Assembly: GCA_050179685.1 (NCBI GenBank)
Contig: JBFXEW010000016.1
Coordinates: forward strand, 45,620-109,619
DNA from: Salinivirgaceae bacterium
GTDB lineage: Bacteria > Bacteroidota > Bacteroidia > Bacteroidales > SZUA-534
Length of the DNA: 64,000 nucleotides
Reading direction: 5' to 3'
Position 1 is the stretch's first letter, and the number at the start of each line of letters is the position of its first letter. This document shows, one piece after another, positions 24,774 to 45,960 of this stretch. A program made the position numbers and the translations under genes. The notes below the pieces were generated by a model. That model was not told the DNA's origin and searched no databases. It saw nothing but the letters and a program-made list of their open reading frames with translations.

Positions 24774-26693
24774 GTGGATCAATATCAGAAAATACTGACA
24801 AAATATTGGGGATATGCCAACTTCAGGCCTTTGCAGCACGACATCATCCGGTCGGTGGGCGAGGGACGTGATACCCTGGCATTAATGCCAACCGGGGGAG
24901 GAAAATCAATAACCTTTCAGGTGCCGGCTTTGGCTAAAGAGGGTATTTGCATTGTGGTTACCCCGCTTATCGCGTTGATGAAAGATCAGGTTGAAAACCT
25001 GAAAGCCCGCAAAATTAAAGCAGTTGCCATTTACTCGGGAATGACCCGGCACGAAATTGATGTGACCCTCGAAAACTGTGTCCACGATGCCAACATGAAG
25101 TTCCTGTATTGCTCGCCTGAACGTTTGGGAACTGAACTATTTCGTACGCGGGTTAGGCAGATGCATGTGAATTTGCTGGCCATCGATGAGTCGCATTGTA
25201 TTTCGCAATGGGGCTACGACTTTCGCCCATCGTACCTGAAGATTGCCGAAGTACGCCAGCTCTTGCCCGGTGTGCCGGTATTGGCGGTTACTGCAACGGC
25301 CACCTCACGCGTTATCGACGATATTCAGGAGAAACTGGGCTTTCCCGAAAAAAATGTATTCCGTAAAAGTTTTGAGCGTAAAAACCTGGTTTACATGGTT
25401 CGCGAGGTGGAAGATAAGCAGAAACACCTGATTAAAATAGCCCAATACTTTCCAGGTAGTACGGGTGTGGTTTATGTTCGCAACCGGCTTCATACCAAAG
25501 AGATATCTTTATTTTTAAATCAGCAGGGATTTTCTGCCGATTATTATCATGCGGGACTTACATCGGCAGAGCGCGATTTTAAACAAAATCAATGGAAAAA
25601 GGGAGCCATCCACATTATGGTTTCAACCAATGCCTTTGGAATGGGTATCGACAAAGCCGATGTGCGCTTTGTGGTTCATATGGATTTACCCGATACGCTG
25701 GAAGCCTATTTTCAGGAAGCCGGACGCGGGGGGCGCGATGAGAAAAAGGCTTATGCCGTTTTACTTTACCATCCGGGCGACCGCAAAAAGCTGGAGCGCC
25801 GCATCGATTCAACTTTTCCCGAAGTCGATGAGATTAAACGGGTGTACGAAGCCCTGGGTAATTTTTTTCAGTTGCCCGTGGGTGGTGGAAAGGGAATGGG
25901 CTTCGATTTCGATATATCGGCTTTTGTGAAGGCCTACAAGTTCAATATTTTGAACGTTTACAACAGCCTTAAACTGCTTCAGCAAAGCGGGTATCTCGAA
26001 TTGAGCGAAGAAGTGGACAATCCATCGCGAATAATTTTTACCGTTACCCGCGACGATTTGTACAAATACCAGGTAGCCAATGCGGCCGAAGATGCCTTTA
26101 TTAAGCTGCTGTTGCGGAGTTATTCGGGAATGTTTACCGAATACCGGCCCATCGATGAAGGCGATTTGGCACGCAAAACCAACGCAAAACCCGAAATTAT
26201 TACAGCCTTCCTGATTAAACTGGGACGCGACAAGATTATCAATTACATTCCACGGAAAAAAGTTCCCCAGATTTTTTATACCGAAGAGCGACTGCCTACA
26301 GCTTCTTTGTTATTTACCCGCGAAAAGTATCAGGACCGGAAAAAACTTTACAGTGAAAAAATCTTCGCCGTAGTTGATTATGCCACCCGAAAAAAATGCC
26401 GCTCGCAGCAGTTGTTGAACTATTTTGGTGACATGCAGGCTACCCGTTGCGGGGTTTGCGATGTTTGCACCGAACGAAACAAACTCGATTTAAGCAACAT
26501 GGAATTCGATTTGGTGGTTGAAGCTATAAAAGCAGCGCTTCGAAAACAACCCTTAAACCTGGAACAACTGGTCGATGCCATTAAACAACCCAACGAAAAA
26601 GCAGTTAAAGTAATTCAATGGCTGCTCGACAACCAAAAACTATACCGCGACGAATCCTTACTGCTGCATTGGAAAAAAACCGAAACAGAATAA
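24774..26693 (+). CDS. recQ: RecQ-family ATP-dependent DNA helicase
   Basis: MPTGGGKS, DESHCISQWGYDFRP, TATA, FGMGIDK, QEAGRGGRD, Zn motif CR...CGVCDVC. Confidence 0.93.
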   Translation: MDQYQKILTKYWGYANFRPLQHDIIRSVGEGRDTLALMPTGGGKSITFQVPALAKEGICIVVTPLIALMKDQVENLKARKIKAVAIYSGMTRHEIDVTLENCVHDANMKFLYCSPERLGTELFRTRVRQMHVNLLAIDESHCISQWGYDFRPSYLKIAEVRQLLPGVPVLAVTATATSRVIDDIQEKLGFPEKNVFRKSFERKNLVYMVREVEDKQKHLIKIAQYFPGSTGVVYVRNRLHTKEISLFLNQQGFSADYYHAGLTSAERDFKQNQWKKGAIHIMVSTNAFGMGIDKADVRFVVHMDLPDTLEAYFQEAGRGGRDEKKAYAVLLYHPGDRKKLERRIDSTFPEVDEIKRVYEALGNFFQLPVGGGKGMGFDFDISAFVKAYKFNILNVYNSLKLLQQSGYLELSEEVDNPSRIIFTVTRDDLYKYQVANAAEDAFIKLLLRSYSGMFTEYRPIDEGDLARKTNAKPEIITAFLIKLGRDKIINYIPRKKVPQIFYTEERLPTASLLFTREKYQDRKKLYSEKIFAVVDYATRKKCRSQQLLNYFGDMQATRCGVCDVCTERNKLDLSNMEFDLVVEAIKAALRKQPLNLEQLVDAIKQPNEKAVKVIQWLLDNQKLYRDESLLLHWKKTETE

Positions 26694-26947
26694 TGGTTTT
26701 TACAGCCTTTCACACTAAGGTTTCAGCCTTGCAATCCTACCGACTACCTGCTTTTAATCAGCACGGTACGGTGGAAAAGTCATTTGTTTCTTTTGGTCAC
26801 AAAAGAAAAAAGGAAGGCATAGGTTATGGAACTATGTTTTTTGTGTTTGTAATAATTTAGTAAAGCGCGTTAATCGTTGCGTCTTCATAGCTTTAAGGCA
26901 CAATAATTAATTCCCGCTCTTACGTCCTGTTTCCGTTTTTTGCCTTT

Positions 26948-27042
26948 GTCGCAATTTTAATTTGCTTTTAGTTATAGTTTTAGCATAAATGCAAGAAACA
27001 AACAACGCAACTGCGTTTAACGCCAGGGTTGTAACCAATTGT
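26948..27042 (+). repeat. attC-like site, right part (copy of 28879-28973)
   Basis: ~90 bp similarity to 28879-28973 including identical aagaaacaaacaacgcaactgcgttta; similarity ends at GTT (27028). Confidence 0.7.
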
Positions 27043-27102
27043 GGAATTCCAGAGAAATTGGACTAAGAAATAAATTTTTGTATTTTTACTTAAAAATAAG
27101 AT

Positions 27103-27291
27103 ATGGCGACAAAGGAGATAAAAGATAAGATCAATAATGTTATTGATACTATTCCGGATGACATATTAGAAGATGTGCTGGAGTATCTTAAGTCATTGAC
27201 AAATAAGTCAAAAAATAAAATAAATTTATCTCAGAATTTGAGTAAGATACTTGATGAGGATAAAAACTTGCTTGAAAGACTGGCTCAATGA
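27103..27291 (+). CDS. Putative antitoxin (62 aa)
   Basis: Small helical protein; stop overlaps the Doc start (ATGA); ends LLERLAQ. Confidence 0.7.
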   Translation: MATKEIKDKINNVIDTIPDDILEDVLEYLKSLTNKSKNKINLSQNLSKILDEDKNLLERLAQ

Positions 27292-27659
27292 TATCAACAG
27301 ATGAGGCCATTCGGATACAATCGGTTCTGATTGAAAAATTTGGCGGTACGGATGGATTACGTGACAAAAACCTGCTTGAATCTGCCTTGATGAGGCCATA
27401 TCAAACATTTGATAATAAAGACTTATACCCAACACCTTCAGAAAAAGCTGCTGCAATTATTGAGAGTGTATTGATTAACCATCCATTTATTGATGGAAAT
27501 AAAAGATTTGGATATGTTGCTATGCGCTTAACTCTAATGGATTATGGTCTGGATATACATACTAATGAGGATGATAAATACGACTTTGTGATAAAAATTG
27601 CTATTGGAGATTTCAAATTTGACCAAATTCTCAATTGGATAAATGACAAATTGAAGTAA
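27288..27659 (+). CDS. Death-on-curing (Doc/Fic) family toxin
   Basis: GG.DGLRD..LLESA..RP, KAAA, HPFIDGNKR (Doc-type Fic motif). Confidence 0.9.
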   Translation: MISTDEAIRIQSVLIEKFGGTDGLRDKNLLESALMRPYQTFDNKDLYPTPSEKAAAIIESVLINHPFIDGNKRFGYVAMRLTLMDYGLDIHTNEDDKYDFVIKIAIGDFKFDQILNWINDKLK

Positions 27660-27897
27660 GAACAACTGCCTATACTAATTAGGACGCTGAGTGTTCTGTA
27701 TTTCGGAAGCCATCGGAACAGCAATGAGTTCCCCGGGGCAATCGGGGCAGGAGACCTGTACTATTTTCTTAATACAGTTTTTGTTTTAACCCTACTCATA
27801 GTAAAAACCCTCCATTTAAGGCTTTGCTTGCCGGCCGGTAAGGCACGTTCTTTTATAAAAAAGCCAATCAAAATACCCGGCGTATCAAATTATTTCC

Positions 27898-27905
27898 TAG
27901 CTTTG
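27898..27905 (+). promoter_or_regulatory. Putative -7 promoter element upstream of cassettes 2-3
   Basis: TAGCTTTG matches TAnnTTTG; 20 nt before an A-rich-preceded ATG at 27926. Confidence 0.45.
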
Positions 27906-27925
27906 GTTAAGTAAACCAAAAAAAC

Positions 27926-28069
27926 ATGAACCCAAACACTACCTATAATACAACCAAACGTAACAGGGTGCCTATAGCATACCAATTTTGGGTAGATAAA
28001 AGAAGGTGGGCTGCGGTTATCTTGTGGTTGGCTGCAACCTTAAAAAACATCGATTTAAAAACGTATTAA
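27926..28069 (+). CDS. Putative 47-aa leader peptide spanning a cassette junction
   Basis: Own translation: MNPNTTYNTTKRNRVPIAYQFWVDKRRWAAVILWLAATLKNIDLKTY*; stops 4 nt before the ATG at 28074. Confidence 0.35.
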   Translation: MNPNTTYNTTKRNRVPIAYQFWVDKRRWAAVILWLAATLKNIDLKTY

Positions 28070-28073
28070 TGTA

Positions 28074-28826
28074 ATGATGAAAAGATTTATTGCATATTTT
28101 GATTATTTGGGATTCAAGAAATTTATAGAAAATAATGACCTAGAATATCAAAAAAGAATTATTGGAAACAATTTTCGAGATATAGAAAATGCTTTAGGTC
28201 ATGGAAAAACAAAGGAAGCCTCTAGAGGAGTAATAGCTGATTTAGAAATGTCGATTATTAATTGTATTAATTTCTCGGATACAATTGTTTTTTGGACAAA
28301 TGATGATTCGGAAGATTCACTCTTAGAAATTCTTAAAGTTGCATATCGATTTAACATGCATGCCGTTGATTTCTTTTTTCCTGCAAGAGGAGCATTGGTT
28401 TATGATGAAATAATTTATATTGACGTTAAAAAACAAAACGAAGCAGGTGGACTTTATAATATTAATTCAGTATTTGGAAAAGGACTAGTTAAAGCTCATG
28501 AAAAGGCAGAAAAACAACATTGGGCAGGTACTGTAATTGATAATTCATTTATTGAAGAACTTGCAAATAGAAACTATGAAATTGATACTTTTTTGTCTTC
28601 GTATGCTAAGAAGTTTAAAGTACCATATAAGAATGGACATGAATTACCCGATGAATATGTTCTTAATATTATTGAAGGAAAATTGACCAATGAGGGTTTG
28701 AAAAACTTTGAAAATAGAATAAAAGAAAATTTTTCTCGTCATAAAAAAACAATTGATAACCAATACATTCAAGAGAAGATTGATAATACCCTAAAATTCC
28801 TAAATAGCTTTTATAAAAATGATTGA
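28074..28826 (+). CDS. Hypothetical protein with class III nucleotidyl-cyclase-like motif pattern
   Basis: FIAYFDYLGF...FSDTIV...ARGAL...VFGKGLVKAHE parallels the FxDxxGF / GD / RxG / GxxVNxA order of adenylate/guanylate cyclases; AT-rich. Confidence 0.6.
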   Translation: MMKRFIAYFDYLGFKKFIENNDLEYQKRIIGNNFRDIENALGHGKTKEASRGVIADLEMSIINCINFSDTIVFWTNDDSEDSLLEILKVAYRFNMHAVDFFFPARGALVYDEIIYIDVKKQNEAGGLYNINSVFGKGLVKAHEKAEKQHWAGTVIDNSFIEELANRNYEIDTFLSSYAKKFKVPYKNGHELPDEYVLNIIEGKLTNEGLKNFENRIKENFSRHKKTIDNQYIQEKIDNTLKFLNSFYKND

Positions 28827-28827
28827 A

Positions 28828-28973
28828 AAGGCAGCGGCCAACCCGCGCTCAAACGTCTTGCTTGCGGCAGTTGGAAAAGTCACAATTTCAATTTACTTTT
28901 AGTTTTGAATTTTAACATAACAATAAGAAACAAACAACGCAACTGCGTTTAGCGCCAACGTTAGCGGTCATTT
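28828..28973 (+). repeat. attC-like imperfect palindrome between cassettes
   Basis: gccAAC (28837-42) ... GTTagc (28960-65); inner arms gcgct-c-aaacg (28845-55) and cgttt-agcgc (28946-55) pair with one unpaired C; AT-rich loop. Confidence 0.7.
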
Positions 28974-29005
28974 AAGAAAACATCCATGCATTAACTATAG
29001 AAAGA

Positions 29006-31018
29006 ATGAAAAAAATTGATTTCCATATTCATACAATGCAATCTATTAGTGATTCACTTTTTGATTTTAACTTGGATAAACTAAAAGAATATGTTGACAA
29101 GATGGAAATTGATTGCATTGCTATAACAAATCACAATCTATTTGACAAAGCTCAATTTCTTGATATTTGTAGCAATCTACAAATAAAAGTTTTTCCAGGC
29201 ATTGAAATTGATTTAGAAGGAGGTCATATTCTACTTATTTCTGAAAATGAAGATATAGAGGATTTTGACTCTAAATGCCGTAGAGTGAAAGGATTAATAA
29301 CTTCAGTAAACGATTCAATAACTTACGAGCAATTAATTGAGATTTTTCCTTTGCTTAATAAATATTTGTTAATTCCACATTACGATAAAAGTCCTAATCT
29401 TAAGGAAGATACATTACAAAAATTAGGAGACAATATATTTGTTGGAGAGGTTACTAGTATACGAAAATTTAAAGCATGTATAAGAGAATCAAATAAATTA
29501 GTGCCTGTTATATTTAGTGATTTTAGGTTTACAGATAAAATTTCAAATTTTCCAACAAGGCAAACATTTGTAAATGCAGGTGATAATTCACTACGTTCAA
29601 TTAAAGGTAGTCTGTTTGATAAATCGAAGGTATCACTTTCAAGAGATGATGGGAATGATTTTTTCCAAGCTACAGACGATGGTATAATATTATCAACAGG
29701 TTTAAATGTTATTATAGGAGAACGTTCAACGGGGAAAACCTATACTCTTGATAAAATTTGCAACAATTTTAGTAATGTTAAATACATCAGACAATTTTCA
29801 TTACTTCAAAATGACGAAGAAAGCTTTAAAAAACTTGTAACCACAAGACACAGCTTAGTAACAGAATCCTATCTAAAAGAATTTAAAGATGTTGTACAAG
29901 ATGTTAATCAAGTCGATTTAAAAGGGAATGAAATTAAACTGGGTAAATACATTGATTCATTGAAAAAGTTCGCCTCAGAAAGTGATAAGCTTGATACATT
30001 TTCAAAATGTAAATTGTATAATGAGACTAATTTTGAGATAAATGATTTAAGTAATTTAAAAACACTTATTAAAGCAACTGAAACTTTGATTGAAAATATT
30101 GAATACAAGACTATTGTAAATAAACACATTTCAGAAGCTTCATTGAAGGCATTAATTATCGACTTAATTAAAAAGCATAATGAACTGTATGAATCAAATT
30201 TGAAAAAATATTGGTTGAATGAACTAATAAACAATATTAAAGATTCATTGCGTTTTAGGTCAACTACAACAGCAATTGAGGACATAGATTTTTATAAGTT
30301 CAAAACTGAAAAAGTAAAAGTTGATAAATTCATGCGTTTAGCTAAAAATCTGCAAGATGAAAAAGAAATTGATAGCAAAGAAATTCGTGGATTTAAAGTA
30401 GTAGCAAGAACAAAAAAATATACTGGAGCAAGTCAACTAAAAGCAAAAAGTAAAAGTCAACTTTCTTTTAGTAATGCTTTTGATAATTATAGTAATCCAT
30501 ATAAGTTTTTAATCGCTCTTCAAGGAGTTGGTATTGAGGAAACAGAATTTTACAAATACTTTGTTGATATAGAGTATAAAACATTAAATAAACATGGATT
30601 CCCAGTTTCTGGTGGTGAACGTTCTGAGTTTAATCTGCTTCATGAAATTAATGATGCATTGAAACATGATATTTTATTAATTGATGAACCTGAATCTTCT
30701 TTTGACAATATTTTCTTGAAAAATGATGTAAATGTCTTAATAAAAGAAATTTCCAATGAAATTCCGGTTATTGTTGTAACCCATAATAATACAATTGGAG
30801 CTTCGATAAAACCTGATTATGTAGCCTATACACAGAAAAAATTAAACAATGGGGGTATTGAATATTCAGTTTTCTTTGGCCATCCAATGAGCAAACAACT
30901 TAAAAATGCAAAAGGTGAAACGATTGAGAATCTAGATATATTATTTAATTGTTTGGAGGCTGGAGAAATTGCTTATTATGAACGTAAATCACGAGCTTAT
31001 GAAATACTTAAAAATTGA
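29006..31018 (+). CDS. PHP-domain + ABC/SMC-like ATPase fusion (Ppl/TrlF-like)
   Basis: DFHIHT, ITNHN, PGIEI, HIL, IPHYD, FSD (PHP); GERSTGKT Walker A, long helical insert, VSGGERS signature, LLIDEPE Walker B, VVTHN H-loop. Confidence 0.85.
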   Translation: MKKIDFHIHTMQSISDSLFDFNLDKLKEYVDKMEIDCIAITNHNLFDKAQFLDICSNLQIKVFPGIEIDLEGGHILLISENEDIEDFDSKCRRVKGLITSVNDSITYEQLIEIFPLLNKYLLIPHYDKSPNLKEDTLQKLGDNIFVGEVTSIRKFKACIRESNKLVPVIFSDFRFTDKISNFPTRQTFVNAGDNSLRSIKGSLFDKSKVSLSRDDGNDFFQATDDGIILSTGLNVIIGERSTGKTYTLDKICNNFSNVKYIRQFSLLQNDEESFKKLVTTRHSLVTESYLKEFKDVVQDVNQVDLKGNEIKLGKYIDSLKKFASESDKLDTFSKCKLYNETNFEINDLSNLKTLIKATETLIENIEYKTIVNKHISEASLKALIIDLIKKHNELYESNLKKYWLNELINNIKDSLRFRSTTTAIEDIDFYKFKTEKVKVDKFMRLAKNLQDEKEIDSKEIRGFKVVARTKKYTGASQLKAKSKSQLSFSNAFDNYSNPYKFLIALQGVGIEETEFYKYFVDIEYKTLNKHGFPVSGGERSEFNLLHEINDALKHDILLIDEPESSFDNIFLKNDVNVLIKEISNEIPVIVVTHNNTIGASIKPDYVAYTQKKLNNGGIEYSVFFGHPMSKQLKNAKGETIENLDILFNCLEAGEIAYYERKSRAYEILKN

Positions 31019-31295
31019 AGACAATAAAGGTTATTTTCTAAAGGATAAAACAAATCCCGATGAATGGACTGAAATTGACCAAATTGAAAAAAATGACTTA
31101 ATGAAATTATTAGAGTCTGCATCAGAACCTGATTTTGAAATGGATGCTTATAATGAAAGTCTGATTCAACATAAAGCACATCAAATTATATATAAAAACC
31201 TTACAGAGAAGTTTGATACATTTCTATCAAATAAGAGTAGATTTATTGATGAGTCTGAATCTATTTATAAAACAGCTTTAGAGAAATATCAATAA
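30999..31295 (+). CDS. Small acidic hypothetical protein (98 aa from ATG 30999)
   Basis: MKYLKIEDNKGYF...; overlaps the ATPase 3' end by 20 nt; same AT-rich composition. Confidence 0.75.
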   Translation: MKYLKIEDNKGYFLKDKTNPDEWTEIDQIEKNDLMKLLESASEPDFEMDAYNESLIQHKAHQIIYKNLTEKFDTFLSNKSRFIDESESIYKTALEKYQ

Positions 31296-31314
31296 AAAAA
31301 CAGAGAAGAAACTT

Positions 31315-32286
31315 ATGGAAAAAATACTTGCATTTGTTGATTTGCTAGGTTTTAGTCAAATGGTGAATACTGATGAAAATAAAGCTAGAATTATTCTGAA
31401 TGACTTTTACAATATTGCTTTCACTGAAATCAAAGGCAAGCCAAATGTAAATGGACATTTGTTTTCTGATTCACTATTAGCATATTCAAGTTCTAGAGAA
31501 GACTTGATAAATTGTCTTGCCGCTATTTATCAAAAATGCCTTTTGAAAAATGACTCTTACAGCGAGTTGTCAAAGTTTTTTCTTTTACCTCGTGGTGCAA
31601 TGAGTGTAGGTATTGTGAATGTTGAAGACAGGCAAACAGCTCCAAACCTTACTAAAGATTTTATTGTGAGTCAAGCATTAGTTCATTCAGCAAAACTGGA
31701 AGCGCAAATCAAGGGAAGTCGCTTGCTTGTTGCTGCCAAAAATGAAGAACAACAACAAATGCAACTTGATTGGAATAGAAATATTAGATATGGTTTGTAT
31801 CAGGACGATGCTCTTACATTCCTTGAAAATTATAAATACAAAGACGTTTTATGGTTTTCATCATTTGACGATGGAAATAACCAACGGGATAACCTCATAA
31901 ACCTAATTGACATCGCAATAAAATTAGTCAAAGACAATTCAAGAAATGAAAAAGTTTTATTACAACATATTTGGACATTGAGAATCGGTCTTTTATCGTA
32001 TTCTAAATATTTAGGCCAAGAAAGTGACCCTGTTTTAAATAGAATTATAAGAGAGTTTAAGGCAGACCAATATTGGCTATTGTGGATGACACTAATTGAA
32101 ATGATTGTAAATAGCACAACTGAATGGAAATATGCAGCAAGTAAAAAAATTGTTGATTTTTACAAAAAAACAAGTTTGAAAAAAGGTTGGAGTAACTTAA
32201 TCGAAGAGTTGAACAAGCCAGGAGAACAATATGCATTAAAATGTTTTGAGAAATTTATAGATGAAATGTCAATTCAAACAATATAA
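31315..32286 (+). CDS. Nucleotidyl-cyclase-like N-terminal domain plus helical C-terminal region
   Basis: ILAFVDLLGF...LFSDSLL...LPRGAMSVG...SQALVHSAKLE; 19 nt downstream of the small gene. Confidence 0.6.
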   Translation: MEKILAFVDLLGFSQMVNTDENKARIILNDFYNIAFTEIKGKPNVNGHLFSDSLLAYSSSREDLINCLAAIYQKCLLKNDSYSELSKFFLLPRGAMSVGIVNVEDRQTAPNLTKDFIVSQALVHSAKLEAQIKGSRLLVAAKNEEQQQMQLDWNRNIRYGLYQDDALTFLENYKYKDVLWFSSFDDGNNQRDNLINLIDIAIKLVKDNSRNEKVLLQHIWTLRIGLLSYSKYLGQESDPVLNRIIREFKADQYWLLWMTLIEMIVNSTTEWKYAASKKIVDFYKKTSLKKGWSNLIEELNKPGEQYALKCFEKFIDEMSIQTI

Positions 32287-32287
32287 A

Positions 32288-32360
32288 AAACGAACCACTA
32301 ACACTTACCCTCCAATAAAGCCTTGCTTGTATACGCTTTGCATTGGAGGGTAGGTTGAAC
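32288..32360 (+). repeat. attC-like hairpin closing the three-gene cassette
   Basis: accactAAC, then taccctccaat/aaagc pairing with gcttt/attggagggta, then GTTGAAC (GTTRRRY) at 32354. Confidence 0.65.
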
Positions 32361-32522
32361 TAAACATGGCCTGCTTACAACTACCTTCCGATTAGTTGTT
32401 TGAGCATAGTGTTTCCAATCGGTTTTTTTCAAGAGCTCCCGAGGCGATTTTTCAGGGTTTTCATAATCCAAGGTTTGGTATAATACGGGAATGCGTCGGC
32501 GTTAGTAGGAATTCTAGTTAGC

Positions 32523-33052
32523 ACGGTGCGGTGGGCATGCAAAACCAGGTGTGGAATTGTCGATAAGGGTAAAGTGGCACCAGTGTTTCAGGACGAAACC
32601 AAACCTTCACGACCTTGAGTTGGGGAACTTGCAAAGCGCAGGGAAGTTCTTATCTCTAAACTCCACCAACTTTAGTCACTCAAGTTACTCCAAATACTCC
32701 AACCACAAGCCCCAGCGGGGCGTAAGCTTGGTAGCCCCGGGTTTCAACCCGGGGGATAAGGAGTATGAAAGAATAAGCGGTGCAAGCAGCAAAACAACCA
32801 TAAAAAACAGGCCATTTATGCACCGCAAAAAGCGGCAGGCCGCAATTAAAACCATCAATACAAACAAAAATATTCATTAACCATGTCCTCACCTTACGCA
32901 ATCTAAAATTGCCAATCTGAAATCGTTAATCGCTTATCTGAAATCATTAACCACAAAAACCTCATGAAATGTCTTGTGTCTTGAGTCTTAAGTCTAGCGT
33001 CTAAACGCTAACCCCCCATGTTCATCGAACAGGCCTCTAACCCCCATCAACT
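32523..33052. repeat. Long direct repeat copy A (non-coding, REP-like hairpins)
   Basis: Colinear with 34420-35138, e.g. aaaaccaggtgtggaattgtcgataagggtaaag and ttgcaaagcgcagggaagttcttatctctaaactccaccaactttagtcac identical. Confidence 0.9.
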
Positions 33053-33073
33053 CATCGCCACTCTACTCCGGAC

Positions 33074-33107
33074 AAAAAAAAATGCGCCTTAGTCCTTAGC
33101 GCATTTT
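33074..33107 (-). terminator. Intrinsic terminator for the minus-strand 230-aa gene
   Basis: aaaaaaaaatgcgc...gcgcatttt just past the stop codon. Confidence 0.65.
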
Positions 33108-33130
33108 CGTTTCGTTTCCCGCTAGTTGAT

Positions 33131-33823
33131 TTATTCTTCATTGGCAATTTCCTCTTCTTCTTTTTCATAGGCTCCCCGTAAATCAACAATTACTCGGGCA
33201 GCCTTATACTCATTGTAAAACACCGGCTCCTGGTCCTTTATAACCAGCATCAGTTTATCCATTTGCTCACGCAGCAGGGTATTTATTTCCTTAAAAAGCT
33301 CCTGCAGGCGCGAGGTTGCTGTACTGCGGGCAACAATTGCGGTGCGTGGTTTGGCTACCAGAGCGGCAAAATCATCAATTTCTTTCCGCAGTCCGCTGGT
33401 AGTCTCCGGTAGCAATCCATAAGGAGCCAGGGCTTCAGCATCCAGCCCACTGGCAATTTGGTGTATCCGGTTGCAACGATTCAGTAAACTGTTGTCGCCT
33501 ATCGTTTTTAAATACGAAGGCGACACTTTGACCTCTTGTTGAAGTTCCAGATTATTTTGGTCCACAGCATACACATAGATAGACGCTGCAACACGCAGGG
33601 TAATTTCTATCATTTCAGCTTCTTCTTTTTGTTTTTGAAGGGTAGTACCAGTTGACTTTCCTTCCTGAATTTGCTGAACTTCTTTTAGTTCTTCAAGCAG
33701 TGCCATAAATTTGCTTACAACAGCTGCAATTGCCGGCACTAAGGCCAGCTTAGCTCCATATTTGGTCAATATATTGGCTACGGCCAGATACGAAGACAAA
33801 TGATTATTTTGTACACGATTCAT
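33131..33823 (-). CDS. Hypothetical alpha-helical protein (230 aa)
   Basis: Clean ATG ORF with AT-rich leader and terminator; helical; ends FYNEYKAARVIVD plus acidic tail; resembles an uncharacterised Bacteroidota family from memory. Confidence 0.8.
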   Translation of the reverse strand: MNRVQNNHLSSYLAVANILTKYGAKLALVPAIAAVVSKFMALLEELKEVQQIQEGKSTGTTLQKQKEEAEMIEITLRVAASIYVYAVDQNNLELQQEVKVSPSYLKTIGDNSLLNRCNRIHQIASGLDAEALAPYGLLPETTSGLRKEIDDFAALVAKPRTAIVARSTATSRLQELFKEINTLLREQMDKLMLVIKDQEPVFYNEYKAARVIVDLRGAYEKEEEEIANEE

Positions 33824-33978
33824 AATATAATGGTTTTAGTTAGGGGAAACGCAGACTAAATTAAACCAATTCCTATAAATTTGCAAGAGGCAAAAACATG
33901 TTTCTGATCACATACTTGCTTGACAGTTAAATTGCTAACTAAGGTTAGGACCGATGCAAAGTAACCGTCCCTGGTGTT

Positions 33979-34335
33979 GTACCCGGCAACTATTTTGATG
34001 CACCCCATAACCTTAGCCTTGTTCCCGGCAACATCAAGGGTGTGCCAGCCAACATTAGCACCGTACCCGGCAACATCATTCGCATATTAGGCAACATTAG
34101 CATCGTACCAGCAAACATTAGCGTCGTGCCCGGTAACATCATTGGCATACTAGCCAACATTAGCATCGTACTAGCCAACACCAGGGGTGTACTAGCAAAC
34201 ATTAGCACTGTACTAGACAACATCATTGGCGTACTGGGCAACATTAGCATCGTACTAGGCAACATCAGGGGTGTACTAGCCAACATTAGCACCGTACTGG
34301 GCAACATCACGGGTGTGCCGTACAACTTCAGCTCA
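33979..34335. repeat. Tandem array of ~17 degenerate 21-bp units, consensus approx gtactaggcAACattagcatc
   Basis: Units read in register from 33979 to 34335 without indels; AAC invariant. Confidence 0.92.
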
Positions 34336-34419
34336 CACCTTTGGAGCTTGACCGGTTTACTGAGACCGATCCTTTTTTTGAAAGCTGTAATCACGATTAT
34401 TTATTGGAATTTAATTCGT

Positions 34420-35138
34420 ACGGTGCGGTGGGCACGCAAAACCAGGTGTGGAATTGTCGATAAGGGTAAAGCGGCTGTACCCATTCAGAACGAAACCGTA
34501 CATTCACAACCTTGAGTTGGGGTCTTTGCAAAGCGCAGGGAAGTTCTTATCTCTAAACTCCACCAACTTTAGTCACGCAAATTACTCCAAATACTCCAAC
34601 CACAAACCCCGAAGGGGTGTAATAATAATAGCCCCGGGTGTGAACCCGGGGAATACAACCACACAAGAAAGAGCGGTGCAAGCACCACAACAACCATAAA
34701 ATCAGGCCATCCATGCACCGCAAAAGGTGACGGGCCGCAATTAAAACCGTTTATATAAACAAAAATCTTCATTAACCAAGTCCTCACCTTACGCAATCTA
34801 AAATTGCCAATCTGAAATTAATGTCGTTTAGTTAAAGAAATTCACCCCTATAATCCCCTCAAGGGGATACCTGCAACGATGGAACAGAGCTGGTCCTTCC
34901 GCCGCGGCGGAGAGGTGCCCGCCTTGGCGGGCGGAGAGTGAAGTCTGCTTAACTAAACGACATTGAATCTGAAATCGTTAATCGCTTATCTGAAATCATT
35001 AACCACAAACTCCTCACAAAATGTCTAGCGTCTTAAGTCTAATATCTAACTTACCTGCCACACAGGCAGGAGTCTCGTGTCTTTAGTCATTATTCTAACC
35101 CGTCTATCCATCAGACAGGCCTCTAAACTCCATCAACT
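34420..35138. repeat. Long direct repeat copy B (interrupted by a MITE)
   Basis: Colinear with 32523-33052 apart from the insertion at 34819-34975. Confidence 0.9.
34819..34965. mobile_element. 147-bp MITE with IS4-like terminal inverted repeats and 10-bp target duplication
   Basis: TIR taatgtcgtttagttaa / ttaactaaacgacattg; aatctgaaat at 34809-18 and 34966-75; empty site with one aatctgaaat at 32914-23. Confidence 0.88.
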
Positions 35139-35393
35139 TTAGTCACTTTATGAACTTAAGCCACTTTAAGTACTCATCTTAACACGCACCGTCTAGGGTG
35201 TAACACGCGCAATGCATGGAGTGACACCAAATAAGTTTACTGTATTATTTCCGTCAGCACACGGTGTTGAAAAGGCTTTTTCGATAAAAATAAGGACATT
35301 ATAGCTTTTTAGCTGCTCAATGTCATAAACTACAGATAAATCATTCGTTGCTTAATAAGGATAGGTTTATTACTTTTGCCCATATTTTTATTT

Positions 35394-36017
35394 ATGGAAC
35401 ACGATATTGAGAACCGGGTTTATTCTGAAAACGTAATTGGTTTTACCACTTTAGCAGTTGAGTACTGTAACCTGCTCGACGGGGTAGCTTTACTTTCACA
35501 AAAAGATTTTATCGACAAGGCACACCGCTTGTTGCCGCTTATTTATTTAAAAGCCATTATTCTGCCCGAAGTGGAACCCGAGATGCCCGATATGATTGAT
35601 AAATCGGTTACTCAGGAGGAATGGGAGGCGGTGCATACTACCCTGTTAAAGAAGCTTAGCGGAGTGGATGAATACCAGGAAGTATGGGATTCCCTGAACG
35701 ATTCGCAGCAAATGAATAGTTTATCGGAAGGCTTTACCGATATTTATCAGGACTTGAAAGATTACATTGCTCTTTATAATATGGGAACTCCCGAAATTAT
35801 GAACGATGCCATTTGGGAGTGCAAAAACAATTTCAAACAGTTCTGGGGCCAGCGCCTGATGAATATTACCCGGGTTTTGCATCATCTGTTGTATGGCGGA
35901 GTTTCCCTTAACGAGTCGGATGCTTTAAGCGAAGCGGACTTTGATCCCGAAAACTGGGGCAAAAAAGATTGGTCCGATTTGGGCTTCCAAAGCGAAAGTG
36001 AAGATACTTATGAATAA
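35394..36017 (+). CDS. DUF5063-family protein (ATG 35394)
   Basis: NVIGFTTLAVEYC...LLPLIYLKA...LSEGFTDIYQDLKDY...WGQRL; TACTTTTG promoter motif at 35371. Confidence 0.75.
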   Translation: MEHDIENRVYSENVIGFTTLAVEYCNLLDGVALLSQKDFIDKAHRLLPLIYLKAIILPEVEPEMPDMIDKSVTQEEWEAVHTTLLKKLSGVDEYQEVWDSLNDSQQMNSLSEGFTDIYQDLKDYIALYNMGTPEIMNDAIWECKNNFKQFWGQRLMNITRVLHHLLYGGVSLNESDALSEADFDPENWGKKDWSDLGFQSESEDTYE

Positions 36018-44958: not shown

Positions 44959-45960
44959 TTATTGGCCCAGGGTGGCAACCATTACCGCTTTAATGGTGTG
45001 CATACGGTTCTCGGCTTCGTCGAACACAATGCTGTGCTCGCTTTCGAACACATCTTCGGTTACTTCCATGCCGTCGAGTCCAAACTTCTGGAAGATTTCT
45101 TCGCCCACTTTGGTATCGCGGTTGTGGAAAGCCGGTAAGCAATGCATAAATTTAACCTTGGGATTACCGGTGGCTTTAATTACATCCATATTAATCTGGT
45201 AAGGTTTCAGCAGGTTGATGCGTTCTACCCAGACACTGTCGGGTTCGCCCATGCTTACCCAAACGTCGGTGTAAAGGAAATCGCAATCTTTAACGCCTTC
45301 GGCTACCTTGTCGGTAACGGTAATTTTAGCGCCGGTTTCTTTGGCAATTTCCAAGGCTTTGGCCACCAGTTCCGCATCGGGTTGTACCGATTTGGGAGCT
45401 ACCGAACGGAAATCCATACCCATTTTGGCTGCACCAATCAGCAGCGAATTGCCCATGTTGTTGCGGGCATCGCCTAAATAGGCAAATTTAACCTGATGCA
45501 GGGGCTTGTCGCTGTGTTCCATCATGGTCATGAAGTCGGCCAGAATTTGTGTGGGGTGGAATTCGTTGGTCAGGCCATTCCATACGGGAACTCCGGCGTA
45601 TTTGGCCAGTTCTTCCACAATGTCCTGTCCGTAACCGCGGTATTCAATGCCGTCGTACATACGGCCCAGAACGCGGGCGGTATCGGCCATACTTTCTTTT
45701 TGTCCGATTTGCGATCCCGATGGACCCAGGTAGGTTACGTGGGCTCCCTGGTCGAAAGCGGCCACTTCAAAAGCACAGCGGGTACGGGTCGACGCTTTCT
45801 CGAAAATTAAGGCAATGTTTTTACCTTTTAGGCGCTGTTGTTCCGTTCCGGCGTATTTGGCCTTTTTCAGGTCAACCGAAAGGTCGAGCAGGTATTTAAT
45901 CTCTTTTGGACTAAAGTCCAGAAGCTTTAAAAAATGACGGTTTCTTAAATTGTAAGCCAT
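44959..45960 (-). CDS. argF: Ornithine carbamoyltransferase (probably catabolic, arcB-type)
   Basis: [33 protein letters not shown]; downstream of carbamate kinase. Confidence 0.93.

Follow-up and report, generated by a model that had tools for sequence, protein, structure and literature searches.

A mobile cassette of a Bacteroidota chromosome that probably joins two independent candidate defence modules, PDC-M49 and a cyclase-like gene

Do three tightly packed genes that share a single pair of inverted ends form one anti-phage system, or are they separate modules that have come to lie in one mobile unit? This question is raised by a locus at positions 28960–32350 of the window, the 64-kb stretch of DNA analysed here (positions 45620–109619 of GenBank contig JBFXEW010000016.1, C16 below), from a Salinivirgaceae bacterium whose 4.56-Mb genome is assembled in 50 contigs. 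Positions without a contig or locus name refer to this window. We consider it probable that the locus is a composite mobile cassette, in which two independent defence modules, the gene pair PDC-M49 and a solitary cyclase-like gene, became fused through loss of the recombination site that lay between them.

The three co-oriented open reading frames (ORFs) are enclosed by a single pair of inverted core boxes. The R'-like left box (28960–28973, plus strand; GTTAGCGGTCATTT) is the sole exact copy within the window, and nucleotide homology to locus L033, which holds the closest M49 relative, begins exactly at this box. The right end (32295–32350, plus strand) is composed of the R''-like box CCACTAAC at 32295–32302, a hairpin, and GTTGAAC at 32344–32350. 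As a DNA fold the hairpin had a z-score of -4.4, none of 200 shuffles being as good, and hairpins of this type recur elsewhere in the same genome (two copies on C28, others on C4 and C3). Read by eye, 8 of 10 positions of the left box are complementary to the right box. Genes 1 and 2 overlap by 20 nucleotides (nt) and gene 3 begins 19 nt after the end of gene 2; no core box was found in this 19-nt gap (31296–31314, plus strand), which forms the junction of the two modules. A first-pass annotation of the sequence had described the three ORFs in this tight packing, within one pair of complementary ends and with no internal att-like site, and our analysis agrees with it on each of these points. 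A scan for promoters and terminators gave signals at or under shuffle level and none between genes 2 and 3, and an Rfam scan of 26500–35500 gave a single match, Acido-Lenti-1, outside the three-gene cassette. All three genes are under purifying selection, the ratio of nonsynonymous to synonymous substitution rates being 0.02–0.03 for gene 3 (against seven relatives) and 0.05–0.07 for gene 1.

Genes 1 and 2 and the named system PDC-M49

Gene 1 (29006–31018, plus strand) encodes a protein of 670 amino acids (aa) with an N-terminal PHP phosphoesterase domain fused to an ABC/SMC-type ATPase, and gene 2 (30999–31295, plus strand) encodes a protein of 98 aa with no known fold. The start of gene 2 is most likely the ATG at 30999, since 61 relatives start with MKYLKIE. 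In PADLOC, gene 1 matched PDC-M49A with an E-value of 2e-295, residues 1–670 aligning to positions 1–674 of a profile of 674 positions, and gene 2 matched PDC-M49B (E 3.1e-36). The locus encodes the A and B proteins of PDC-M49, A at full length, with gene order and overlap as in the relatives counted below, and there is no third gene among the PDC-M49 models matched. M49A and M49B are an obligate pair: among 80 loci with M49A relatives (79 metagenome loci and one genome), M49B directly followed M49A and overlapped its end in 74 of the 74 that had at least 330 nt downstream. The first-pass annotation did not recognise the combination as a named system; genes 1 and 2 do match one, and gene 3 has no significant PADLOC match.

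The domain composition of gene 1 emerged from several lines of evidence. Pfam placed a PHP domain in it (E 1.3e-7), NCBIfam gave ABC matches at residues 524–609, and a PDB profile search with a profile of 53 relatives returned PstB/ABC nucleotide-binding domains at residues 526–595 and one PHP phosphoesterase at residues 3–69. Motif conservation was counted over 57 distinct full-length relatives. H7 and H9, E67, H125, S171-D172 and R174 of the PHP domain were present in 57 of 57, and T41-N42-H43-N44 in 57, 57, 56 and 57, respectively. The ATPase motifs (Walker A G238..G243-K244, Q263, the SGGE signature at 535–538, D560-E561 of Walker B, and H593) occurred in all 57, and an insert of approximately 290 residues separates Walker A from the signature. 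The fusion of a PHP domain to an ABC-type ATPase with a full motif set, already recognised in the first-pass annotation, was thereby confirmed, as were the TNHN and SDFR-type (SD-x-R) variants of the PHP motifs, which are invariant or nearly so. The family is large, with 1838 clusters at E ≤ 1e-50 among the candidates scored; many of these are flavobacterial, and their source annotation reads histidinol-phosphatase or PHP domain protein. For M49B, neither the solved structures nor the named Atlas clusters yielded a relative.

M49A resembles Ppl and TrlF in joining a PHP phosphoesterase domain to an ABC-like ATPase. Ppl, reportedly described by Gao and colleagues in 2020, is said to be a single-gene defence system built from a PHP domain and an ATPase. 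M49A differs from both in its obligate small partner and in its PHP motifs, which take the invariant forms TNHN and SDxR. None of the five PADLOC families matched at E ≤ 0.1 is named Ppl, for which the library reportedly has a model. With the TrlF family NF045780, gene 1 scored 91.8 bits, under the curated cut-off of 350 bits, and the match covered residues 3–394 only. A literature search for TrlF gave a Photorhabdus temperature-restriction locus, not a defence system.

Judged by its profile matches, the gene 1–gene 2 pair is the already catalogued candidate system PDC-M49, that is, a named system with a candidate role in defence. According to the available part of a preprint by Payne et al. 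(2024; 10.1101/2024.01.29.577857), 145 PDC systems were derived from "guilt-by-embedding" in BREX, DISARM and type I restriction-modification loci; the same text describes these 145 systems as untested, which counts against assigning a defence function to this half of the cassette. As PDC-M49 is a candidate only, its name carries no demonstrated function. A full-text literature search for 'PDC-M49' returned no paper.

Independence and fusion of the two modules

Relatives of gene 3 (31315–32286, plus strand) were surveyed at 30 loci from a species-level genome collection. None of these 30 loci had M49A or M49B within 8 kb of the gene-3 relative, and, conversely, gene 3 followed the M49 pair in none of the 49 M49 loci that had at least 1350 nt downstream. 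A sample of 400 further genomes of the phylum contained no gene 3; a single one of the 400 encoded full-length M49A, and that genome was without gene 3. Across the 30 gene-3 loci no conserved neighbour of any kind was found. The co-occurrence of the trio across genomes that would accompany a joint system was thus absent at the family level.

The same division is apparent at the nucleotide level. The closest gene-3 loci, from several Bacteroidota families, are 83–87% identical to the window, and their homology is confined to 31299–32304; it begins at 31299–31315 and stops at 32303–32304. Homology to M49 loci covers approximately 28991–31300 and ends at approximately 31295–31326, in most cases at 31288–31300. 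Gene-3 relatives with 94% protein identity occur as single-gene cassettes, each between its own end boxes, and an M49 pair 82% identical to that of the window carries its own site directly after gene B. Among relatives, a GTT[AG]GCGG(T)(A/C)ATT box was located 30–50 nt upstream of the start in 14 of 59 cases for M49A and 8 of 29 for gene 3, and its complement ACCGC[CT]AAC directly downstream in 17 of 73 cases for M49B and 8 of 25 for gene 3, where shuffles gave an expectation of about one. Relatives of each module thus carry the boxes that face the junction here, ACCGC[CT]AAC after M49B and GTTAGCGG before gene 3. In the window both of these are missing, and therefore the two modules share one outer box pair.

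The fused arrangement is not unique to the window. We aligned contigs of four public metagenome runs to 28700–32600. Run X1, which contains the whole stretch and is probably the source sample, was excluded from recurrence, and a 151-nt contig of run X4 that enters gene 3 by 11 nt only was not counted as bridging the junction. In run X5, from another study, a 3496-nt contig spans 29002–32289 with 251 differing letters. Compared to the window, its junction has 12 additional letters and lacks 1; all 13 gap letters are confined to this interval, so that none of the three ORFs is disrupted. In run X2, from a third study, a 388-nt contig extends across the junction (31231–31618); the X2 pieces are approximately 99% identical to the window in gene 3 and approximately 88% in M49A. 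The X5 contig has the leader of L033, and the L033 cassette is located directly behind a tyrosine recombinase and not behind the cassette with phd, doc and a 250-aa ORF that precedes the locus in the window. The sequence after the right-hand box differs among the window, X5 and X2. Because the trio recurs in other runs and the left flank of a close relative differs, the composite is kept and probably moves as a unit, in line with what the first-pass annotation had proposed for the three genes.

The alternative to a fusion of independent modules is a true three-component system, in which the cyclase-like protein would synthesise or remove a nucleotide that signals to the PHP-ATPase, or would itself be under control of the PHP-ATPase, and in which the three proteins depend on one another. 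The 20-nt overlap, the 19-nt gap and the single pair of end boxes agree with such a system, and two further results weigh against independence of the modules. In at least two other runs, X5 and X2, the fused trio is kept at approximately 92% identity with ORFs free of insertions and deletions, and selection may therefore favour the combination. In addition, a gene-3 relative (50% identical to that of the window) closes a different conserved three-gene unit in two genomes (L018:6174–8960 and L019:6288–8957). The two genes before it encode proteins of 317–356 aa (48% identity between the genomes) and of 247 aa (79% identity; weak match to DUF4145, E 0.02), and the unit of L019 is flanked by one pair of core boxes. 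This arrangement hints that gene 3 may partner other modules. Set against this are the absence of gene 3 from 49 M49 loci and of M49 from 30 gene-3 loci, the solitary 94%-identical relatives with their own boxes, and the separate site of the 82%-identical M49 pair. Tight spacing, moreover, is not specific to M49B: as read from the coordinates, 6 of 29 loci have gene 3 overlapping its upstream gene or at most 12 nt behind it, and these upstream genes are of four unrelated kinds (HsdS, type III Mod and AbiU among them). The close packing behind M49B therefore reflects a habit of gene 3 and not a shared function. We regard a three-component system as very unlikely. The joint signalling module of PHP-ATPase and cyclase put forward in the first-pass annotation is likewise unlikely, because genes 1 and 2 are already named, the trio is absent at the family level and gene-3 relatives stand alone. 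In the composite cassette that we favour, the site between the M49 and gene-3 cassettes would have been lost, leaving the pair within one set of inverted end boxes, and the fused pair would be mobile and putatively transcribed as one unit.

The cyclase-like family of gene 3

Gene 3 encodes a protein of 323 aa with a class III cyclase-like N-domain (residues 1 to approximately 184) and a helical C-domain (residues 188–323). An AlphaFold2 model calculated with 24 relatives had a predicted local distance difference test (pLDDT) score of 84.6 and a predicted template modelling (pTM) score of 0.86, and residues 188–323 are helical in it. When the model was compared to the PDB by Foldseek, the top matches were solely class III adenylyl and guanylyl cyclases, with E-values from 3e-8. 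Two motifs stand out in the 24 sequences, F-x-D-L-L-G-F-S (FVD in gene 3), with D9 conserved in at least 90%, and L-F-S-D-S (FSD), with D52 invariant. In the model, D9 ends strand 1 and D52 is located in the hairpin between strands 2 and 3; in canonical cyclase domains encoded by this genome, the corresponding places are occupied by F-x-D-I and G-D. The equivalence of D9 and D52 to the metal-site aspartates of cyclases is a reading of motifs and topology, not a superposition. The cyclase-like fold, the pattern of two aspartates and the helical tail that had been seen in the first-pass annotation are thus all recovered, and, according to the model, the N-domain of gene 3 is a class III nucleotidyl-cyclase fold that belongs to no known sequence family.

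Sequence comparisons gave little for gene 3. There was no match in Pfam (none to PF00211 at E ≤ 0.1) or NCBIfam, PADLOC v2 gave Cas11b alone (E 0.011, not significant), and the best match of a PDB profile search was unrelated (E 0.4). A single PHROGs family, of unknown function, was matched at E 1e-5. An exhaustive profile search collected 173 representative clusters, approximately 16 of them full length and approximately 100 of 220–280 aa that have only the N-domain in common with gene 3. Two results weaken the case for cyclase activity. By our reading, the N-x-x-x-R position of class III cyclases is taken in the gene-3 family by H124, which is invariant, and by residue 127, which varies, so that the Asn/Arg pair is not conserved, and hhalign of gene 3 against three cyclase domains of the same genome gave a probability of 1.6%, that is, no sequence link to canonical cyclases. 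Gene 3 therefore shares with class III cyclases the fold of the cyclase homology domain, without PF00211 membership and without N-x-x-x-R, and its cyclase chemistry stays putative.

Pycsar systems pair a cyclase gene (PycC, class III) with an effector gene. In gene 3, by comparison, no effector gene occurs as a conserved neighbour in the 30 loci, which argues against a two-gene logic of the Pycsar type, and the protein has a helical C-domain of its own.

A second cyclase-like protein is probably encoded close by. The 250-aa ORF at 28074–28826 (plus strand), in the preceding cassette together with phd and doc, is related to gene 3 over its N-terminal approximately 110 aa (BLASTP E 4e-5, 27% identity; hhalign E 3.9e-4, probability 36%). 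The two proteins share the motifs F-x-D-x-L-G-F, F-S-D and R-G-A and differ in their C-terminal parts. By this resemblance, the ORF is a member of the wider group that has only the N-domain in common with gene 3.

The genomic neighbourhoods of gene 3 are rich in defence genes. At 13 of the 30 loci a PADLOC defence protein was encoded among the four nearest ORFs or fewer, and the neighbours included type I, IIG/ISP and III restriction-modification, Mrr, Vsr, BREX, AbiU, QatCD, PDC-S01 and PDC-S63. Gene 3 was also located inside operons, in HsdS/McrBC, type III Mod/Res and BrxC/PglX intervals. Since it is embedded in restriction-modification and BREX operons, gene 3 is a defence candidate by the published logic of guilt by embedding. 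A different explanation is that gene 3 has no part in defence and is either a regulatory or signalling relative of cyclases, or a selfish passenger or addiction gene that hitch-hikes in variable regions. This would fit the 17 of 30 loci at which no PADLOC defence protein is encoded among the four nearest ORFs, the lack of a conserved partner gene, and the cargo of the other cassettes of this genome, which are mostly toxin-antitoxin pairs and include some plainly non-defence genes. It accounts less well for the embedding of gene 3 in restriction-modification and BREX operons, for its proximity to AbiU and QatCD, for its near-identical copies across Bacteroidota families and in other phyla, and for the very strong purifying selection acting on it, and we consider it unlikely.

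In a tentative proposal, to which we give somewhat less than an even chance, the gene-3 family would represent a new anti-phage protein that acts alone and has a divergent form of the class III cyclase fold. It would be a single-gene cassette, found in at least eight phyla according to database records, that docks behind unrelated defence operons and is here welded to PDC-M49 as a three-gene unit that may gain from the combination. As far as the sequences go, the anti-phage roles of both PDC-M49 and gene 3 are those of candidates. PDC-M49 is already known; the new part is the gene-3 family together with the fused three-gene cassette, and both are within known kinds. Our literature search found nothing specific on a solitary cyclase-like gene as an integron cassette.

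Cassette rows, recombinases and proposed function

The window is a segment of a Bacteroidota chromosome and encodes SusC/SusD-type loci, hybrid two-component regulators and arabinan-degrading enzymes. The cassette is part of a low-GC island between recQ (24774–26693) and a DUF5063 gene (35376); the GC content is 27.7% at 28960–31298 and 31.7% at 31299–32304, compared to 40.8% for the whole window. The preceding cassette encodes a phd-like antitoxin (27103–27291, plus strand), the toxin Doc (27288–27659, plus strand; Pfam Fic/DOC E 1.9e-16, TIGR01550 E 9.9e-16, above cut-off) and the 250-aa ORF. It is closed by an attC-like repeat of approximately 130 nt (28835–28967, plus strand), a direct repeat of 26915–27030; in a wider delimitation the two copies span 28831–28972 and 26899–27042. 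Relatives of phd/doc were also observed approximately 4.3 kb downstream of PDC-M49 in two metagenome loci (L074:10502–11040 and L075:7032–7570), with a Doc 62% identical to that of the window; these cassettes are therefore neighbours elsewhere too.

Fourteen contigs of the genome together carry at least 20 copies of the repeat, arranged in small ORF-site-ORF-site groups with co-oriented ORFs (other contigs: C3, C5, C6, C9, C10, C23, C26, C28, C30, C33, C42 and C44; loci L120 and L122–L132). The cassettes are rich in toxin-antitoxin genes (HicA, ParDE, TacAT-like, HEPN/MNT, HigBA-like and Fic) and also hold a SIR2-like protein, a CAT-family acetyltransferase and some plainly non-defence genes. 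On C9 (L124:12056–13147), a gene for a group II intron reverse transcriptase/maturase was observed beside the cassette row. The consensus of the repeat is an imperfect inverted repeat in which 74.7% of cells are paired, compared to 23–35% when slid. A strict-motif scan of the genome allowing two mismatches gave 218 matches against approximately 130 expected from shuffles and was uninformative.

Recombinases related to IntI and Xer accompany these cassettes. A tyrosine recombinase of this type is encoded upstream and co-oriented in four independent loci (C44, L019, L004 and L033), with mutual identities of 37–49%. That of C44 (482 aa; C44:1626–3074, minus strand) heads a cassette row, with an MNT/HepT pair. 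The whole proteins scored 176–209 bits in two stretches, with integron-integrase models as the best families, and the region of the integron-specific insert was unmatched. No integrase was found among the genes of the 64-kb window.

The row could instead be unrelated to integrons and consist of dispersed repeats resembling miniature inverted-repeat transposable elements, or carrying terminators, in a hot spot of defence islands where exchange occurs by homologous recombination. Three results point in this direction and weaken the integron-like part of our interpretation. A whole-genome search for an integron integrase gave a best score of 114 bits against a cut-off of 265 bits. The pairing in the repeat showed no more covariation than shuffles (263 of 500 scored as high); RNAalifold found four pairs only, and the repeat centre is highly conserved. 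Homology to gene-3 loci stops directly after the first downstream box (...CTAAC A), at 32303–32304, in L002–L008, X2 and X5. Homology thus breaks at both inverted boxes, and gene 3 does not take the main part of the downstream site with it in the way of classical cassettes. Dispersed repeats would also fit the scattering of the copies in small groups over 14 contigs and a terminator-like hairpin that was located on the minus strand of the repeat. They would leave unexplained that, across unrelated genomes, each module is accompanied by end boxes that complement one another, that the ORFs are co-oriented with the sites, and that a distinct clade of IntI/Xer-like recombinases lies upstream, co-oriented, in the four loci. 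Gene-3 relatives of other phyla, moreover, have cores of the classical integron type (GTTAT.../...ATAAC; downstream at six loci and upstream at four, as read from the listing). We therefore regard a row of mere dispersed repeats as improbable.

Compared to known integrons, complementary core boxes that travel with the gene, a criterion for integron cassettes, were found with both M49 and gene-3 relatives; no IntI with the integron-specific insert was found in this genome, either beside a row or elsewhere. Bacteroidota are listed among phyla with integrons in the part of a review available to us. According to the accessible text of a preprint by Darracq et al. (2024; 10.1101/2024.07.02.601686), anti-phage systems occur as cassettes of chromosomal integrons. 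The present rows resemble the integrons described there in that compact defence and toxin-antitoxin genes are arranged as promoter-poor cassettes between sites of a folded type. They differ in their Bacteroidota host, in a recombinase without the integron-specific insert and under the cut-offs, and in being small and dispersed. The words cyclase, PHP and PDC are absent from that text as far as it was accessible.

Further repetitive sequences are located downstream of the cassette. A non-coding element of approximately 500 nt is present in two direct copies (32515–33000 and 34412–35048; 86–89% identical), each with a CCCCGGG...CCCGGGG hairpin, and the second copy contains the Acido-Lenti-1 RNA found by Rfam (34605–34651, minus strand; 43.8 bits, above the gathering score). 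Between the copies are a 230-aa ORF of no family (33131–33823, minus strand) and 21-nt tandem repeats in approximately 11 or more registers (33967–34344), which read as repetitive ORFs on both strands.

Based on these results we propose the following function for the locus, which probably belongs to an integron-like row of cassettes in its Bacteroidota host. In the first module, PDC-M49, M49A may act as an ATP-driven sensor combined with a nuclease or phosphoesterase directed at phage nucleic acid, and M49B, translationally coupled and always present, may be its regulator or adaptor. The second module would be self-sufficient as a single protein: the helical C-domain of gene 3 may sense infection or regulate the protein, and upon infection the cyclase-like N-domain would convert or deplete nucleotides.

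Gene 3 is strongly conserved, spreads horizontally, has a cyclase-like fold and is uncatalogued in PADLOC v2. If it protects against phage, it would represent a nucleotide-based defence that consists of one protein and works without a separate effector. The locus further illustrates how multi-gene units may be built in cassette rows by losing the site between cassettes, and it adds a case from the Bacteroidota in which defence and toxin-antitoxin cargo is located behind an integrase relative without the integron-specific insert.

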